DNA of 64,000 nucleotides from NCBI RefSeq assembly GCF_050320075.1, contig NZ_CP190018.1. One strand, 5' to 3'. Below the pieces are notes generated by a model. The model made no database searches, was not told where the DNA came from, and saw only the letters and a program-made list of their open reading frames with translations. The stretch's first letter is position 1. Each line of letters opens with the position of its first letter. The DNA comes from Escherichia coli (GTDB lineage Bacteria > Pseudomonadota > Gammaproteobacteria > Enterobacterales > Enterobacteriaceae). A program made the position numbers and the translations under genes. Below are positions 5,182 through 45,414 of this stretch, piece after piece.

Positions 5182-5229
5182 AACGTTTTCCGGCGTTTCT
5201 CAACGCCGGAATAGTGCGCTTTGTTTATG

Positions 5230-5327
5230 CCGGATGCGGCTAAAACGCCTTATCCGGCCTACAAATTCTACCAAATTCAATATATTGCAGAAATCATGTA
5301 GGCCTGATAAGCGTAGCGCATCAGGCA
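5230..5327. repeat. REP/BIME-type palindromic units (inverted pair)
   Basis: GCCGGATGCGGCTAAAACGCCTTATCCGGCCTAC (~5230-5263) and inverted TGTAGGCCTGATAAGCGTAGCGCATCAGGCA (~5297-5327) between convergent ysaA and avtA. Confidence 0.75.
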
Positions 5328-5331
5328 ATTT

Positions 5332-6585
5332 TTAGTGACTTTCAGCCCAGGCTCTTTCTATCTCTTCTGCCAGAATCTTCACACCCGCCTCAATTTTATC
5401 CGGCTCCGGCACGTAGTTCATGCGCATACATTGATGTGTATGTGGCCACGGTTTATCCAGCCCTAGGAAGAAGTTGTGCCCCGGCACCATCAGCACGCCG
5501 CGTGCTTTCAGGCGCTGATAGAGCTGCTCGGTCGTAATGGGCAAATCCTTAAACCATAGCCAGAGGAAAATGGCTCCTTCCGGTTTATGAATCAGGCAGC
5601 GATCTTCCGGTAAATAGCGGCGAATGATGGCGATAGTTTCCTGAACACGCTGGTAGTAAAACGGTTTGATGACTGTTTCAGACAGGCGCAGCAGATCGTT
5701 ACGCTTAATCATTTCACACATCACCGCCGGACCAATACCGCCAGGTGCCAGGCTGATAATGCCGTTCATATTGGTGATGGCGGTGATGATTTTTTCATTG
5801 GCGATGATAATGCCGCAGCGGGAGCCAGGTAGACCCAGCTTGGAAAGACTCATGCACAGTACGATATTCGGATTCCACAGCGGGCGCGCTTCGCTGAAGA
5901 TGATACCCGGGAACGGGACGCCATAAGCGTTATCAATCACCAGCGGAATGCCATGTTGATTCGCCAGCGCGTCAAGCTTCAGCAACTCTTCGTCAGTAAT
6001 CACATTGCCTGTTGGATTCGTCGGCCGGGAGACGCAAATCATCCCGGTTTCTTCGCCAATATGCAGATGCTCAAAATCGACGTGGTATTTAAACTGGCCT
6101 TCCGGCAGCAGTTCAATATTCGGACGCGCAGAGACAAACAGATCTTCTTCCAGTCCGGCGTCAGCGTAGCCAATGTACTCCGGTGCCAGCGGAAACAGCA
6201 CTTTTTTGACCCGACCATCGGCACGGCGTCCGGCGAACAGATTAAATAAGTAGAAAAACGCGCTCTGGCTGCCGTTTGTTAGTGCAATATTCTGTGGTTC
6301 GATATCCCAACCCAACTTATCGCGCAGCATTCCGGCAAGCAGTGTGAGTAGCTCCGTTTTCCCCTGTGGACCGTCGTAATTGCACAGTGCATCAGTCGCT
6401 TTGCCACTTTCCAGCATGTCGGTCAGTAGCGTCTGGAAGTAGTCCTGCATTTCCGGGATCTGCGCTGGATTACCGCCGCCGAGCATAATCGCGCCAGGCG
6501 TGCGTAAACCGTCGTTCAGATCTTCCATCAGCAGCGTAATGCCGGAGTGGCGGGTAAATTTGTCACCAAAAAGGGAGAATGTCAT
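5332..6585 (-). CDS. avtA: valine-pyruvate aminotransferase (transaminase C), 417 aa
   Basis: ORF track 5332..6690; start moved to internal ATG 6585-6583 (MTFSLFGDKFTRHSG...), the known AvtA N-terminus. Confidence 0.9.
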   Translation of the reverse strand: MTFSLFGDKFTRHSGITLLMEDLNDGLRTPGAIMLGGGNPAQIPEMQDYFQTLLTDMLESGKATDALCNYDGPQGKTELLTLLAGMLRDKLGWDIEPQNIALTNGSQSAFFYLFNLFAGRRADGRVKKVLFPLAPEYIGYADAGLEEDLFVSARPNIELLPEGQFKYHVDFEHLHIGEETGMICVSRPTNPTGNVITDEELLKLDALANQHGIPLVIDNAYGVPFPGIIFSEARPLWNPNIVLCMSLSKLGLPGSRCGIIIANEKIITAITNMNGIISLAPGGIGPAVMCEMIKRNDLLRLSETVIKPFYYQRVQETIAIIRRYLPEDRCLIHKPEGAIFLWLWFKDLPITTEQLYQRLKARGVLMVPGHNFFLGLDKPWPHTHQCMRMNYVPEPDKIEAGVKILAEEIERAWAESH

Positions 6586-37387: not shown

Positions 37388-37806
<419 letters not shown>

Positions 37807-38396
37807 GCACCGCACTCATTGTGGGATACAGCGTATCCGTCTTATCCGATCTAAACGGCAACACTCCACACATTTCCCTGCCAAATTTGCGCCCCATATC
37901 TCACTATCCATTAACGGATTTGTGACAGAAACCATTGTCTTTTTTTATATTTGCTTAAATCTTTTTTTGCGTTACTTATGGCTGGCGCTGGCATTTTCCG
38001 CTGTGCGGTTTAGCGTTCATGGTATTAATCGCTCAGATATCCACCTTTTCATCAGATTTTTTTCACAAAATGCATAAAACTTAATCACCAATTGTTGCTA
38101 ATTATTAAGCTGATTGTTCTGGTTATGTTGGAGTAGCACAAATTTCTCTGCTGCAAATAGCTGTTTGAAGTTTTTTTAATCTTTGTTTGTGGATTCTCAC
38201 CGTTGGTGTAAATCCCGGTGGGCTGTATTGACGTTTTCACATTCTGTTGACAGATTGTAGGTCACGAGGGGCATTTTATGGAGGATCCGCACTGTAACAC
38301 TGATGTTAATTAGTACGGCATCCCCACCTCATAACGTTGACCCGACCGGGCAAAAAACAAAAAAGGTCAGGCAGCGACAACCCACTGCAAAGGGTT

Positions 38397-38417
38397 AAAA
38401 CAACAAACATCACAATT
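38397..38417 (+). promoter_or_regulatory. CA-rich element in the dppA leader (candidate GcvB sRNA target)
   Basis: AAAACAACAAACATCACAATT just upstream of the GGAG ribosome-binding site; dppA is a known GcvB target, exact pairing not verified. Confidence 0.4.
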
Positions 38418-38428
38418 GGAGCAGAATA

Positions 38429-40036
38429 ATGCGTATTTCCTTGAAAAAGTCAGGGATGCTGAAGCTTGGTCTCAGCCTGGTGGCTATGACCGTCGCAGCA
38501 AGTGTTCAGGCTAAAACTCTGGTTTATTGCTCAGAAGGATCTCCGGAAGGGTTTAACCCGCAGTTGTTTACCTCCGGTACTACCTATGACGCCTCTTCCG
38601 TGCCGCTTTATAACCGCCTGGTTGAATTTAAAATCGGCACCACCGAAGTGATTCCGGGCCTCGCTGAAAAGTGGGAAGTCAGCGAAGACGGAAAAACCTA
38701 TACCTTCCATCTGCGTAAAGGTGTGAAGTGGCACGACAACAAAGAATTCAAACCGACGCGCGAACTGAACGCCGATGACGTGGTGTTCTCGTTCGATCGT
38801 CAGAAAAACGCGCAAAACCCGTACCATAAAGTCTCTGGCGGCAGCTACGAATACTTCGAAGGCATGGGCTTGCCGGAGCTGATCAGCGAAGTGAAAAAGG
38901 TGGACGACAACACCGTTCAGTTTGTGCTGACTCGACCGGAAGCGCCGTTCCTCGCTGACCTGGCAATGGACTTCGCCTCTATTCTGTCAAAAGAATATGC
39001 TGACGCGATGATGAAAGCCGGTACACCGGAAAAACTGGACCTCAACCCAATCGGTACCGGTCCGTTCCAGTTACAGCAGTATCAAAAAGATTCCCGTATC
39101 CGCTACAAAGCGTTTGATGGCTACTGGGGCACCAAACCGCAGATCGATACGCTGGTTTTCTCTATTACCCCTGATGCTTCCGTGCGTTACGCGAAATTGC
39201 AGAAGAATGAATGCCAGGTGATGCCGTACCCGAACCCGGCAGATATCGCTCGCATGAAGCAGGATAAATCCATCAACCTGATGGAAATGCCGGGGCTGAA
39301 CGTCGGCTATCTTTCATATAACGTGCAGAAAAAACCACTCGATGATGTGAAAGTTCGCCAGGCTCTGACCTACGCGGTGAACAAAGACGCGATCATCAAA
39401 GCGGTTTATCAGGGCGCGGGCGTGGCAGCGAAAAACCTGATCCCGCCAACCATGTGGGGCTATAACGACGACGTTCAGGACTACACCTACGATCCCGAAA
39501 AAGCGAAAGCCTTGCTGAAAGAAGCGGGCCTGGAAAAAGGCTTCTCCATCGACCTGTGGGCAATGCCGGTACAACGTCCGTATAACCCGAACGCTCGCCG
39601 CATGGCGGAGATGATTCAGGCAGACTGGGCGAAAGTCGGCGTGCAGGCCAAAATTGTCACCTACGAATGGGGTGAGTACCTCAAGCGTGCGAAAGATGGC
39701 GAGCACCAGACGGTAATGATGGGCTGGACTGGCGATAATGGGGATCCGGATAACTTCTTCGCCACCCTGTTCAGCTGCGCCGCCTCTGAACAAGGCTCCA
39801 ACTACTCAAAATGGTGCTACAAACCGTTTGAAGATCTGATTCAACCGGCGCGTGCTACCGACGACCATAACAAACGCGTTGAACTGTACAAGCAAGCGCA
39901 GGTGGTGATGCACGATCAGGCTCCGGCACTGATCATCGCTCACTCCACCGTGTTTGAACCGGTACGCAAAGAAGTTAAAGGCTATGTGGTTGATCCATTA
40001 GGCAAACATCACTTCGAAAACGTCTCTATCGAATAA
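38429..40036 (+). CDS. dppA: dipeptide ABC transporter periplasmic binding protein, 535 aa
   Basis: ORF track 38429..40036. Confidence 0.95.
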   Translation: MRISLKKSGMLKLGLSLVAMTVAASVQAKTLVYCSEGSPEGFNPQLFTSGTTYDASSVPLYNRLVEFKIGTTEVIPGLAEKWEVSEDGKTYTFHLRKGVKWHDNKEFKPTRELNADDVVFSFDRQKNAQNPYHKVSGGSYEYFEGMGLPELISEVKKVDDNTVQFVLTRPEAPFLADLAMDFASILSKEYADAMMKAGTPEKLDLNPIGTGPFQLQQYQKDSRIRYKAFDGYWGTKPQIDTLVFSITPDASVRYAKLQKNECQVMPYPNPADIARMKQDKSINLMEMPGLNVGYLSYNVQKKPLDDVKVRQALTYAVNKDAIIKAVYQGAGVAAKNLIPPTMWGYNDDVQDYTYDPEKAKALLKEAGLEKGFSIDLWAMPVQRPYNPNARRMAEMIQADWAKVGVQAKIVTYEWGEYLKRAKDGEHQTVMMGWTGDNGDPDNFFATLFSCAASEQGSNYSKWCYKPFEDLIQPARATDDHNKRVELYKQAQVVMHDQAPALIIAHSTVFEPVRKEVKGYVVDPLGKHHFENVSIE

Positions 40037-40186
40037 TTAAAAGCCATACCCGGTGGCGCTGTGCCTCTGCGTGCAGCGCCATCCGGCAGCAATACTTCAT
40101 TCCCTGCCCGACCTGGGCGGGAATTGATTTGTGAGCAATACAGACACGCAGTTCCAGGCTGCGGGTCACTACAGAGAATCCGGGTT

Positions 40187-41206
40187 ATGTTGCAGTTTAT
40201 TCTCCGACGTTTGGGACTCGTCATCCCCACGTTTATCGGTATTACCCTTCTCACATTTGCCTTTGTCCACATGATCCCGGGCGATCCGGTGATGATCATG
40301 GCGGGCGAACGTGGGATCTCCCCAGAGCGTCACGCGCAGCTGCTGGCTGAACTCGGCTTAGATAAACCGATGTGGCAGCAGTATCTCCATTACATTTGGG
40401 GCGTAATGCACGGCGATTTAGGCATTTCGATGAAAAGCCGCATCCCGGTATGGGAAGAGTTCGTGCCGCGCTTTCAGGCCACGCTGGAACTTGGCGTCTG
40501 CGCGATGATTTTTGCTACGGCAGTCGGTATTCCGGTTGGTGTGCTGGCTGCGGTTAAACGCGGTTCCATTTTCGATCACACGGCGGTTGGCCTGGCGCTG
40601 ACAGGTTATTCAATGCCTATCTTCTGGTGGGGCATGATGCTGATCATGCTGGTTTCGGTGCACTGGAACCTGACGCCCGTCTCCGGTCGCGTGAGCGACA
40701 TGGTGTTCCTCGATGATTCCAATCCGTTAACCGGTTTTATGCTAATCGACACCGCCATCTGGGGTGAAGACGGTAACTTTATCGATGCCGTCGCCCATAT
40801 GATCCTGCCCGCCATTGTGCTGGGTACTATCCCGCTGGCGGTCATTGTACGTATGACACGCTCCTCGATGCTGGAAGTGCTGGGTGAAGATTATATCCGC
40901 ACCGCGCGCGCCAAAGGGTTGACCCGCATGCGGGTGATTATCGTCCATGCGCTGCGTAACGCGATGCTGCCGGTAGTGACCGTTATCGGCCTCCAGGTGG
41001 GAACATTGCTGGCGGGGGCGATTCTGACCGAAACCATCTTCTCGTGGCCCGGTCTGGGGCGCTGGTTGATTGACGCACTGCAACGCCGCGACTATCCGGT
41101 AGTGCAGGGCGGCGTATTGCTGGTGGCGACGATGATTATCCTCGTCAACTTGCTGGTCGATCTGCTGTACGGCGTGGTGAACCCGCGTATTCGTCATAAG
41201 AAGTAA
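40187..41206 (+). CDS. dppB: dipeptide ABC transporter permease, 339 aa
   Basis: ORF track 40061..41206; start at ATG 40187 (MLQFILRRLGLVIPTF...). Confidence 0.9.
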   Translation: MLQFILRRLGLVIPTFIGITLLTFAFVHMIPGDPVMIMAGERGISPERHAQLLAELGLDKPMWQQYLHYIWGVMHGDLGISMKSRIPVWEEFVPRFQATLELGVCAMIFATAVGIPVGVLAAVKRGSIFDHTAVGLALTGYSMPIFWWGMMLIMLVSVHWNLTPVSGRVSDMVFLDDSNPLTGFMLIDTAIWGEDGNFIDAVAHMILPAIVLGTIPLAVIVRMTRSSMLEVLGEDYIRTARAKGLTRMRVIIVHALRNAMLPVVTVIGLQVGTLLAGAILTETIFSWPGLGRWLIDALQRRDYPVVQGGVLLVATMIILVNLLVDLLYGVVNPRIRHKK

Positions 41207-41215
41207 GGGGACATC

Positions 41216-42118
41216 ATGTCACAGGTTACTGAAAATAAAGTGATTAGCGCACCGGTGCCGATGACCCCGTTACAGGAGTTCTGGCACTATTTTAAACGCA
41301 ACAAAGGCGCGGTCGTCGGGCTGGTTTACGTCGTCATCGTGCTGTTTATCGCGATCTTTGCCAACTGGATTGCACCCTATAACCCGGCGGAACAGTTCCG
41401 CGATGCACTGCTCGCCCCGCCAGCCTGGCAGGAAGGCGGCAGCATGGCGCACTTGCTGGGCACCGATGACGTAGGCCGTGATGTGCTGTCGCGTCTGATG
41501 TACGGTGCGCGATTGTCACTGCTGGTTGGCTGTCTGGTAGTTGTGTTATCGCTGATTATGGGCGTTATTCTCGGCCTGATCGCCGGTTACTTCGGAGGCC
41601 TGGTCGATAACATCATCATGCGCGTGGTCGATATCATGCTGGCGCTGCCAAGTTTGCTGTTGGCACTGGTGCTGGTGGCAATTTTCGGCCCGTCGATTGG
41701 TAACGCCGCGCTGGCATTGACCTTCGTTGCCTTGCCGCACTATGTGCGCTTAACCCGCGCCGCCGTGCTGGTGGAGGTGAATCGCGATTACGTTACCGCG
41801 TCTCGCGTGGCAGGTGCCGGGGCGATGCGTCAGATGTTTATTAACATCTTCCCGAACTGCCTTGCGCCTCTGATTGTTCAGGCGTCGCTCGGTTTCTCTA
41901 ACGCCATTCTCGATATGGCTGCTCTTGGTTTCCTCGGCATGGGGGCGCAGCCGCCAACGCCGGAGTGGGGCACCATGCTCTCCGACGTGTTGCAGTTCGC
42001 GCAAAGCGCCTGGTGGGTCGTGACCTTCCCGGGTCTGGCGATCCTGCTGACGGTGCTGGCATTTAACCTGATGGGTGACGGTCTGCGTGACGCGCTCGAT
42101 CCCAAACTGAAGCAGTAA
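41216..42118 (+). CDS. dppC: dipeptide ABC transporter permease, 300 aa
   Basis: ORF track 41216..42118. Confidence 0.9.
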
Positions 42119-42128
42119 GAGGTTCGAG

Positions 42129-43108
<980 letters not shown>

Positions 43109-43112
<4 letters not shown>

Positions 43113-44113
43113 GTACGCATGAGGCCACCTCGCAACAACCGCTGTTGCAGGCTATCGACCTGAAAAAACATTATCCGGTGAAGAAAGGTATGTTCGCGCC
43201 GGAACGTCTGGTGAAGGCGCTGGACGGCGTTTCGTTTAACCTTGAACGTGGCAAAACGCTGGCAGTAGTAGGTGAATCTGGCTGCGGTAAATCGACCCTC
43301 GGTCGGTTGCTGACGATGATCGAAATGCCCACCGGTGGTGAGCTGTATTACCAGGGGCAGGATCTGCTCAAGCACGATCCGCAGGCGCAGAAGCTGCGTC
43401 GGCAGAAAATCCAGATTGTCTTCCAGAACCCTTACGGTTCGCTGAATCCACGTAAAAAAGTCGGGCAAATTCTTGAAGAGCCGCTGCTTATTAATACCAG
43501 CTTAAGCAAAGAACAGCGTCGGGAAAAAGCCCTGTCGATGATGGCGAAAGTCGGCCTGAAAACCGAACATTATGACCGCTATCCGCATATGTTCTCCGGC
43601 GGTCAGCGTCAGCGTATCGCCATTGCCCGTGGTCTGATGCTCGACCCGGATGTGGTGATTGCCGATGAACCGGTTTCCGCGCTGGACGTTTCAGTGCGTG
43701 CGCAGGTGCTGAATCTGATGATGGATTTGCAGCAGGAGTTGGGGCTGTCTTATGTCTTTATCTCGCACGACCTGTCAGTGGTTGAGCACATTGCCGATGA
43801 AGTGATGGTGATGTACCTGGGCCGCTGCGTGGAGAAGGGAACGAAGGACCAAATCTTCAATAACCCGCGTCATCCGTACACTCAGGCGCTACTCTCCGCG
43901 ACGCCGCGCCTGAACCCGGACGATCGCCGCGAGCGCATCAAGCTCACCGGTGAACTGCCAAGCCCGCTCAATCCACCGCCGGGCTGCGCGTTTAACGCCC
44001 GCTGTCGTCGGCGCTTCGGCCCCTGCACTCAGTTGCAGCCGCAGCTAAAAGACTACGGCGGTCAACTGGTAGCTTGTTTTGCTGTTGATCAGGATGAAAA
44101 TCCGCAGCGTTAA
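43109..44113 (+). CDS. dppF: dipeptide ABC transporter ATP-binding protein, 334 aa
   Basis: ORF track 43109..44113; 4-bp overlap with dppD; Walker A GESGCGKS. Confidence 0.9.
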
Positions 44114-44142
44114 CTCACAAAACCGGGGCCATGCGCTCCGGT

Positions 44143-45414
44143 TTACTCAATAAGCTTCAACAGTGGCGACAAGCATAACAAAATGCCGTACAGCAGAATC
44201 AGCCAGGCTTTAAACCCGCGAAGTTTTTCCAGTTGTGCGACTTTATAGATCAGGAAAAATGGAATGAGGCACGACACAATGCCATATAACGGGCTTCCCA
44301 ACTGAAAGAACACCAGCACCGATACACGAAACGAAACCCAAATCGTCAACGTAATGACGATAAAAGCGCAGATCGCCAGAGTCAGCATGCGTGAGTTAAT
44401 TTTCTTGGTATCAATAATTCGGCTTAACAGATTGAGAATAATGCCTTTAATAGCCTCGTGGAAACCGAGATAAATGCCAAAGAATGCGGTCAGTACGGCA
44501 AAGATATTCAGCACCGTAGAGGTGATATGAATGATATGCCCAGGGATCACCTGCGCGGCCAGTGCCAGTGCCGAGATATTTTGTTCAAAGGCAGAAACGG
44601 CTTCTTCGTGGCTAATTGAGAAAGTAAACGAAAAGGCAAAAAACAGGATCACCGCGATGAGCGTGATATAACTAATTCGGTGGGTACGCAGCGCGAGCCG
44701 GGTTGCCAGTACTTTATCTGCTTCCCGTTTACGATAGGCAATATTCATTGGGTTAAGTACCTGAATAAATACTGCAGAAAAGAAGCAAAATGGAATGGTA
44801 AGCAGGACATCGCGGAAAAAGACGGAGGCTTGCGGGAAGGCGGTTATATTGGTGAAATTCCAGTGCGGGATCATCGCAAAACCGAACACGACGATAATCC
44901 CTACTTTGACCACCACCATTGGCCCGGAAATCTTAAACAGTAATCGTTCACCACCAGACGCAATTGCCACCAGTACGGCGAAAATGGCGACTTTATAAAG
45001 TAGAGATTGTGAAAGATCGGCATCGGTTAAACCGAAGGTTTTCAGGTACGAGGCGCTGTCGAAAACCACGGAGAGAGAGTAGATAAAAATCCCGTGGATA
45101 ATCATCAAAAAGTAGATAACCCCGAGGAAAATTCCCCAGTTCTTCCCCAGGTAATGACTGATAATATCGGTGTAGTCATTACAGGAATCGCTTTCAGAAA
45201 GGGTTTTTAAATAAATGTCCTGCACTACCCAGGTGGCAGGATAAGCAATGATCGCTGCGGTAATAAATACCCAAATTCCCTTCAAGCCAATTTGTACTGG
45301 CATCAGCACGGTTCCGGCACCAATCGCCATGCCTATGCATAATAAAACCCAGCCGAAGTCGTAGCGTGTAAACGGCAATTTCTGATCGTGTTTCGGTAGT
45401 GTGTTGTGCTGCAT
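44143..45414 (-). CDS. yhjV: HAAAP-family amino-acid transporter homologue, 423 aa
   Basis: ORF track 44143..45477; start placed at ATG 45414-45412 ([22 protein letters not shown]...). Confidence 0.8.

Follow-up and report, generated by a model that had tools for sequence, protein, structure and literature searches.

We found that the gap between dppA and dppB in Escherichia coli is a genuine control region that folds as RNA and belongs to a known type, and the explanation that we consider likely is that it is a short, BIME-free allele acting at the RNA level through two modules. The first module, next to dppA, holds a hairpin at which the dppA message ends; the second, next to dppB, is a leader conserved across Enterobacterales, which may pair with the small RNA RyhB.

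The stretch analysed (64 kb in all; henceforth the window) contains here the E. coli dppABCDF operon; its genes are named as RefSeq annotates them in K-12 and in E. coli genomes with 100% identity. A 401-base segment spanning the gap matches many E. coli chromosomes at 100% identity, and in these dppA and dppB are annotated on either side. An earlier sequence-only reading had described a 150-bp gap in an otherwise tightly packed operon, and both its coordinates and its gene calls proved correct: in the list of open reading frames, dppB and dppC are separated by 9 bp and dppC and dppD by 10 bp, while dppD and dppF overlap by 4 bp (Table 1). Further upstream, a tRNA-Pro(CGG) gene lies at 37388-37464, and two tandem full-length matches to RtT RNA (Rfam RF00391, 97-99 bits) lie between it and dppA, at 37501-37632 and 37665-37800.

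Table 1. Features of the dppA-dppB gap and of the surrounding operon (positions in the window)
Feature	Position	Strand	Remarks
dppA (periplasmic dipeptide-binding protein)	38429-40036	+	ORF list; RefSeq annotation of identical genomes; stop codon TAA at 40034-40036
dppA-dppB gap	40037-40186	+	150 bp
Linker TTAAAAGCCATAC plus first C	40037-40049	+	contains the BIME-1 junction (40048/40049), uninterrupted in this window
HP1	40050-40086	+	-27.3 kcal/mol, z -3.5; 15+4 bp, one bulged A
HP2	40097-40127	+	-16.4 kcal/mol, z -3.9; G+C-rich
Most conserved spacer block	40128-40145	+	from orthologue comparison
Conserved leader module	40129-40189	+	61 nt; match to covariance model R1
RyhB complement TGTGAGCAAT	40130-40139	+	perfect 10-nt complement of RyhB nt 41-50 (AUUGCUCACA); within the most conserved block
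HP3	40143-40167	+	-12.7 kcal/mol, z -3.4
dppB translation-initiation region (ACUACAGAGAAUCCGGGUU-AUG)	40168-40189	+	conserved; weak Shine-Dalgarno
dppB	40187-41206	+	ORF list
dppC	41216-42118		ORF list
dppD	42129-43112		ORF list
dppF	43109-44113		ORF list

We investigated the folding of the spacer, which the sequence-only reading had named as a check, and found that the RNA of the 150-bp gap forms three separate hairpins (HP1, HP2 and HP3), each of which lies individually beyond its dinucleotide shuffles. The whole spacer reaches a minimum free energy of -61.9 kcal/mol (z = -3.1), and only 1 of 200 shuffles was as good. The palindrome quoted in the earlier reading is present and corresponds to HP1. 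The description of the spacer as GC-rich holds for the hairpin stems but not for the spacer overall, whose 55% G+C is the same as that of the flanking coding sequence (48-59%). Within 40037-40186, covariance-model searches against Rfam families returned no match up to E = 1. Two copies of the motif AGCAATAC are present, one following HP1 (40087-40095) and the other following HP2 (40134-40142), and the first copy is kept as CAGCAGTGC in genera that carry the REP pair described below.

HP1 starts 13 nt past the dppA stop codon and had been called REP-like, a label that turned out to be right by descent but not by family membership. We took as canonical a REP with a GTAG head followed by the imperfect palindrome GCC(G/T)GATG...ATC(C/A)GGC. 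A search of the window with canonical REP patterns found a pair only at 5229-5326 and none at 40050-40086, where HP1 reads ATAC-CCGG in place of the canonical GTAG-GCCGG. Furthermore, the HP1 47-mer was found at a median of 1 place per genome across 5421 E. coli genomes (blastn, E up to 10). We thus rejected HP1 as a canonical dispersed REP, given its single copy, the missing GTAG head and the failure to match the REP patterns. What HP1 does have in common with REP/BIME elements is its extragenic position, its location within a transcription unit and its stable RNA hairpin.

Evidence for descent comes from other genera, as an inverted REP pair occupies exactly the HP1 site in Leclercia, Superficieibacter, Citrobacter, strain RIT691 and several metagenomic relatives. 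In an alignment spanning four genera, the left arm of REP1 is the counterpart of the HP1 5' arm and the right arm of REP2 that of the HP1 3' arm, while 26 nt from the inner halves are absent. Because its arms align to the outer arms of the REP pair while the inner 26 nt are gone, HP1 is a collapsed (i.e., fused) REP dimer. The resulting stem is longer and near-perfect, with a folding energy of -27.3 kcal/mol compared to -13.2 kcal/mol for the Y REP and -20.9 kcal/mol for the Z REP of K-12. At seven loci (L006, L009, L011, L012, L088, L157 and L172), from Pseudocitrobacter, Enterobacter-like taxa and metagenomic relatives, the dppA-dppB spacer carries another palindrome family instead of REPs (i.e., CCCTCTCCC...GGGAGAGGG and GGGTGAGGG...CCCTCACCC). 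The dppA-dppB site thus seems to attract whichever palindromic repeat family a genome has.

The gap exists in two forms, as the dppA-dppB gap of K-12 MG1655 and E. albertii measures 307 bp compared to the 150 bp of the window. Alignment to K-12 placed the difference in a 157-bp BIME-1 (RIP-type) insertion after GCCATAC, at window 40048/40049, flanked by a CATAC repeat, in which a linker joins a canonical Y REP to a Z REP. This K-12 RIP/BIME-1 element was reportedly worked on by Abouhamad and Manson in 1994. It sits at the same locus and the 150 nt downstream of it resemble the window sequence, but its Y REP, IHF-site linker and Z REP are missing from the window. It appears as 'REPv266b' in PMC10100675, and as REP266 in EcoGene naming. 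Using junction-specific queries, we found the filled junction in 3114 out of 5426 complete E. coli genomes (57%), K-12 among them, and the empty junction (i.e., the short allele of the window) in 2166 (40%), with about 140 genomes fitted by neither query. The K-12 insert was found at a median of 6 places per E. coli genome, and the 120-bp core of the dpp insertion is 88% identical to the BIME-1 at window 5213-5332. Across its 64 kb the window has no other canonical BIME-1 (i.e., a Y REP, a linker and a Z REP).

The short form appears to be the older layout, because outgroup genera run directly from TTAAAAGC... into their own palindromes. Over the shared 150 nt, K-12 and the window differ at about five positions, none of which falls in HP1, the conserved block or HP3; the differences are at the insertion boundary (40044), in HP2 (four, i.e., one stem C/T and three loop bases) and in the dppB leader (one). 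That HP1 arose by REP fusion, and how frequent the two alleles are, we regard as minor additions to knowledge.

To relate these structures to transcripts we used published data, all of which come from the K-12 307-bp allele, where HP1, the block and HP3 are identical to those in the 150-bp allele of the window. Under each of three growth conditions, Term-seq in K-12 detected a dominant RNA 3' end at 3705889(-) (Adams et al. 2021, PMC7815308), and this is the sole curated dominant 3' end called in the K-12 spacer (PMC7815308). We checked the mapping on the sequence and found that it corresponds to window 40088, 2 nt past the last base pair of HP1. Another K-12 3' end, 3707800(-) (window ~38334), 95 nt upstream of the dppA start, is very strong, with Term-seq scores exceeding those at HP1 17-fold in the two conditions compared (PMC7815308); it points to plentiful 5'-UTR fragments or to transcription ending early in the dppA leader.

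DirectRNA-seq reads upstream and downstream of the dppA-dppB junction numbered 234 and 64 in untreated cells, a 3.7-fold drop, and 250 and 141 under bicyclomycin, giving a Rho score of 2.06 with p = 3.6e-5 (PMC7815308). Since the drop is smaller with the Rho inhibitor bicyclomycin, the step-down is partly Rho-dependent. The peak of the Rho termination region was mapped at K-12 3705667(-) (PMC7815308), which corresponds to window ~40310, i.e., 123 nt into dppB and outside the spacer.

The sequence-only reading had suggested that the palindrome could keep the upstream message stable or attenuate transcription, with DppA made in excess over the membrane components, and had named a step in RNA-seq coverage as a check. 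The published K-12 coverage contains this step into dppB, and stabilisation is supported by the Term-seq end just past HP1. Attenuation is supported by the fall in coverage into dppB, with the caveat that the mapped Rho region peaks within dppB rather than in the spacer. We conclude that the proposal to stabilise or attenuate is supported, ordinary and largely known for K-12.

No U tract follows HP1, and its 3' end is therefore best explained as the product of trimming or processing that stops at the hairpin. A different account, which we consider unlikely, is that HP2 and its U-rich tail act as a leaky intrinsic terminator at which most transcripts stop after dppA, the HP1 end being merely a trimmed product. 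A lax scan for consensus terminators did flag 40103-40121 together with AATTGATTTG, and 39 distinct orthologous spacers have a hairpin (mean energy -14.9 kcal/mol) 0-20 nt before UUGUGAGC, in most cases at no more than 10 nt. The hairpins at the HP2 position across Enterobacterales are unrelated in sequence, and in Pectobacterium and Brenneria the position is taken by a textbook terminator (AAAATCGC...GCGATTTTTT). By contrast, the U tract that follows HP2 in the window (UUGAUUUGUG, 40124-40133) is interrupted, with 6 U in 10. Moreover, none of the three K-12 Term-seq conditions gave a curated dominant 3' end where the U tract of HP2 lies (3705846-56), the only such end at 37058xx being 3705889, meaning that HP2 may not terminate in E. 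coli. Also at odds with a terminator at HP2 are the bicyclomycin-sensitive, hence Rho-dependent, part of the coverage drop and the spacers of RIT691, L085 and L198, which have no separate HP2.

With good confidence, then, we attribute the imbalance between dppA and dppBCDF mRNA to the first module (40050-40133), through which dppA mRNA would be made to outnumber dppBCDF mRNA. Specifically, HP1 would block 3'-to-5' exonucleases and set the 3' end of a stable dppA-only message, while readthrough transcripts would be thinned by Rho-dependent termination early in dppB, as seen in K-12. The weak, terminator-like HP2 may add to this thinning, as its positional conservation suggests.

This arrangement has parallels elsewhere. 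REP/BIME elements between binding-protein and permease genes, at malE-malF and hisJ-hisQ, are said to have been described by Newbury et al. in 1987 and Stern et al. in 1988. REP325 (yjdMN) stabilises the mRNA of the upstream gene and attenuates, partly in a Rho-dependent manner (preprint 10.64898/2026.03.23.713779). What the dpp junction shares with these three systems is a stable extragenic palindrome right after a first, highly expressed cistron, an RNA 3' end at the palindrome base, a distal step-down and attenuation that is partly Rho-dependent. Unlike the REP/BIME elements in those systems, HP1 is single copy, has no GTAG head, is a fused remnant of two REPs and is more stable than canonical REPs. 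The dppA 3' end is marked in vivo by HP1 and not by the annotated canonical REPs. As HP1 is common to both E. coli alleles, the BIME-1 insertion (present in 57% and absent in 40% of genomes) may be dispensable for marking the dppA 3' end.

The 3' half of the gap contains a conserved dppB leader that was absent from the sequence-only reading. We found that the last ~60 nt before dppB are kept across Enterobacterales and consist of the block TTGTGAGCAATACAGAC, a hairpin and ACAGAGAATCCGGGTTATG. Loci were gathered both via the DppB protein and via a metagenome scan; the metagenomic set was chosen by the exact block, and so only the protein-selected genomes count for block conservation. The block, the hairpin and the ribosome-binding site were found in loci selected by the DppB protein only, a selection that is therefore independent of the block. 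The block is absent from Yersinia, Edwardsiella, Arsenophonus and one Enterobacteriaceae MAG.

HP3, the hairpin of this leader, was represented by 32 distinct sequences, each of which folded into one end-to-end hairpin (mean z -2.8). The MAFFT/RNAalifold consensus was weak owing to register shifts, and we used these per-sequence folds and a model-based alignment instead. In the latter, compensatory changes were found at 9 out of 9 pairs, with a covarying stem and a variable loop. The proportion of paired cells was 89.9% compared to 76.4% in shuffles (none out of 500 reached the observed value) and 28-51% with the partners slid, in an alignment which, being fitted to the model, somewhat favours the structure.

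We regard it as very improbable that the spacer carries a dppBCDF promoter or a small coding sequence (i.e., a leader peptide or a minus-strand ORF at 40009-40299). That ORF, of 96 codons, does run antisense across the spacer, one E. coli genome has a hypothetical protein annotated there, under HP1, and a GTG at 40131 starts a short frame. However, promoter-like sites within 37500-44500 were found only at 37922 and 38607, and none in the spacer. The lengths of orthologous spacers and hairpins differ by non-multiples of 3, meaning that no frame is conserved, and conservation tracks base pairing rather than codons. Because its frame is not conserved among orthologues, the minus-strand ORF is probably spurious. 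A start-stop mini-ORF (NTG-TGA) at the block was likewise rejected as inconsistent across taxa. We also compared the block by eye with the Fur box, of which 4 out of 10 core positions are matched in E. coli, as well as with CRP and FNR sites.

Within the block, TGTGAGCAAT, the best conserved 10-mer of the leader, is complementary to RyhB (taken from the K-12 annotation) over nucleotides belonging to the core that is invariant in Rfam RF00057. No other complement of at least 8 nt to the RyhB core is present across the 5.85-kb dpp mRNA, and by an arithmetic estimate about 0.004 such matches are expected by chance per 150-nt spacer. The predicted hybrid has an energy of -13.3 kcal/mol and an opening cost of 3.1, which makes the site accessible; in the same calculation the validated sodB site gave 9 nt, -11.7 kcal/mol and an opening cost of 3.95. 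The predicted site lies 48-57 nt upstream of the dppB AUG, beyond the range for a direct ribosome block.

Complementarity to RyhB of at least 9 nt was found in 21 out of 30 Enterobacterales loci chosen via the DppB protein, independently of the block, although among 300 shuffled versions of RyhB there was at least one that matched 22 species compared to the 21 observed and, as the spacers are homologous, the species count is not an independent test. Across taxa the paired stretch moves yet remains complementary to RyhB, covering nt 39-48 in Pantoea, 40-51 in Erwinia and 44-52 in one Rahnella. We put direct RyhB pairing at 40130-40139, a prediction, at close to an even chance.

Published data place this prediction in a regulatory context. 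In Beauchene et al. 2015 (PMC4676285), dppBCDF, without dppA, is among the new candidate operons decreased by RyhB; there, the candidate rests on transcript profiling of fur versus fur ryhB strains, with typical effects of about 2-fold. DppD and DppF each contain one essential [4Fe-4S] cluster, required for assembly (PMC12136057). For iscRSUA, PMC12533949 reports from Desnoyers et al. 2009 that RyhB has the distal part cleaved while a strong intergenic structure preserves iscR.

The second module (40129-40189) comprises a single-stranded block complementary to the RyhB seed, the covarying HP3 and a weak ribosome-binding site. Under iron limitation, RyhB-Hfq would bind the block and bring about decay or Rho-dependent polarity of dppBCDF, with its two ATPases bearing [4Fe-4S] clusters, while dppA mRNA would stay protected behind HP1, as iscR does in iscRSUA. 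Put tentatively, and at somewhat below an even chance, the 61-nt leader would be an undescribed RyhB-responsive intercistronic switch, in which RyhB pairs with UGUGAGCAAU and dppBCDF mRNA is removed while dppA mRNA ends at HP1.

The spacer could be simpler than this: a mere landing pad for palindromic repeats (REP/BIME or CCCTCTCCC-type) with generic 3'-end protection and attenuation, its block conserved for ordinary reasons (e.g., as a terminator U tract, an RNase E site, an S1 or standby site, or a translational enhancer serving the weak ribosome-binding site of dppB), with RyhB affecting dppBCDF indirectly. We consider this possible, though doubtful. It accommodates the unrelated palindromes found at the same place in different genera and the start of the block inside the U-rich tail of HP2, and a single-stranded A/C-rich enhancer upstream of dppB would be plausible, because the dppB Shine-Dalgarno is weak. 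E. coli has about 100 sRNAs, so that a 10-nt match to some part of an sRNA is not rare, and the duplex energy of RyhB with the whole spacer is not exceptional, 7% of shuffles being equal or better. On the other hand, the complement hits the invariant RyhB seed and overlaps the nucleotides used for sodB, and taxa in which one flank of the block is altered extend their RyhB complementarity on the other flank. Furthermore, dppBCDF without dppA was picked out by an independent transcriptomic study (PMC4676285).

As in iscRSUA, RyhB would act on a polycistronic mRNA at the junction before distal, iron-related cistrons, with an intergenic structure guarding the proximal cistron; unlike in iscRSUA, the dpp pairing is predicted, at a site ~50 nt upstream of the start codon and not at the ribosome-binding site. 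As in RyhB-sodB, the same RyhB seed would be used (nt 38-46 for sodB, nt 41-50 for dpp), with a perfect duplex of similar length and energy, but the sodB site spans the start codon whereas the predicted dppB site lies upstream of a hairpin.

The junction also resembles hisJ-hisQ, where GcvB acts on hisQ (PMC9299463), in that an sRNA would target the permease gene that comes first after a binding-protein gene; unlike there, GcvB complementarity to the dppA-dppB spacer is at chance level. Pairing of GcvB with the C/A-rich block was accordingly rejected, as the best R1 duplex (-17.2 kcal/mol) equals the shuffled mean (-17.2 kcal/mol). The known GcvB site in the dppA 5'-UTR gave -24.9 kcal/mol. 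The oppA-oppB junction was also rejected as a parallel RyhB site, with just an 8-nt complement inside oppB, at chance level; this complement (CTGGAAGC, to RyhB nt 53-60) lies at +27 to +34 of K-12 oppB (L205 427-434). Beauchene et al. also mention oppBCDF as possibly affected by RyhB (PMC4676285).

The conserved, RyhB-complementary dppB leader is, in our view, a modestly novel lead. A RyhB site before dppB would supply a direct mechanism for the published, unexplained decrease of dppBCDF but not dppA, and the two [4Fe-4S] clusters needed by the translocator would give a reason for it. If true, iscRSUA would gain a second example of its type, an operon whose parts are uncoupled by an sRNA, and the uptake of peptides and haem would be linked to iron sparing.
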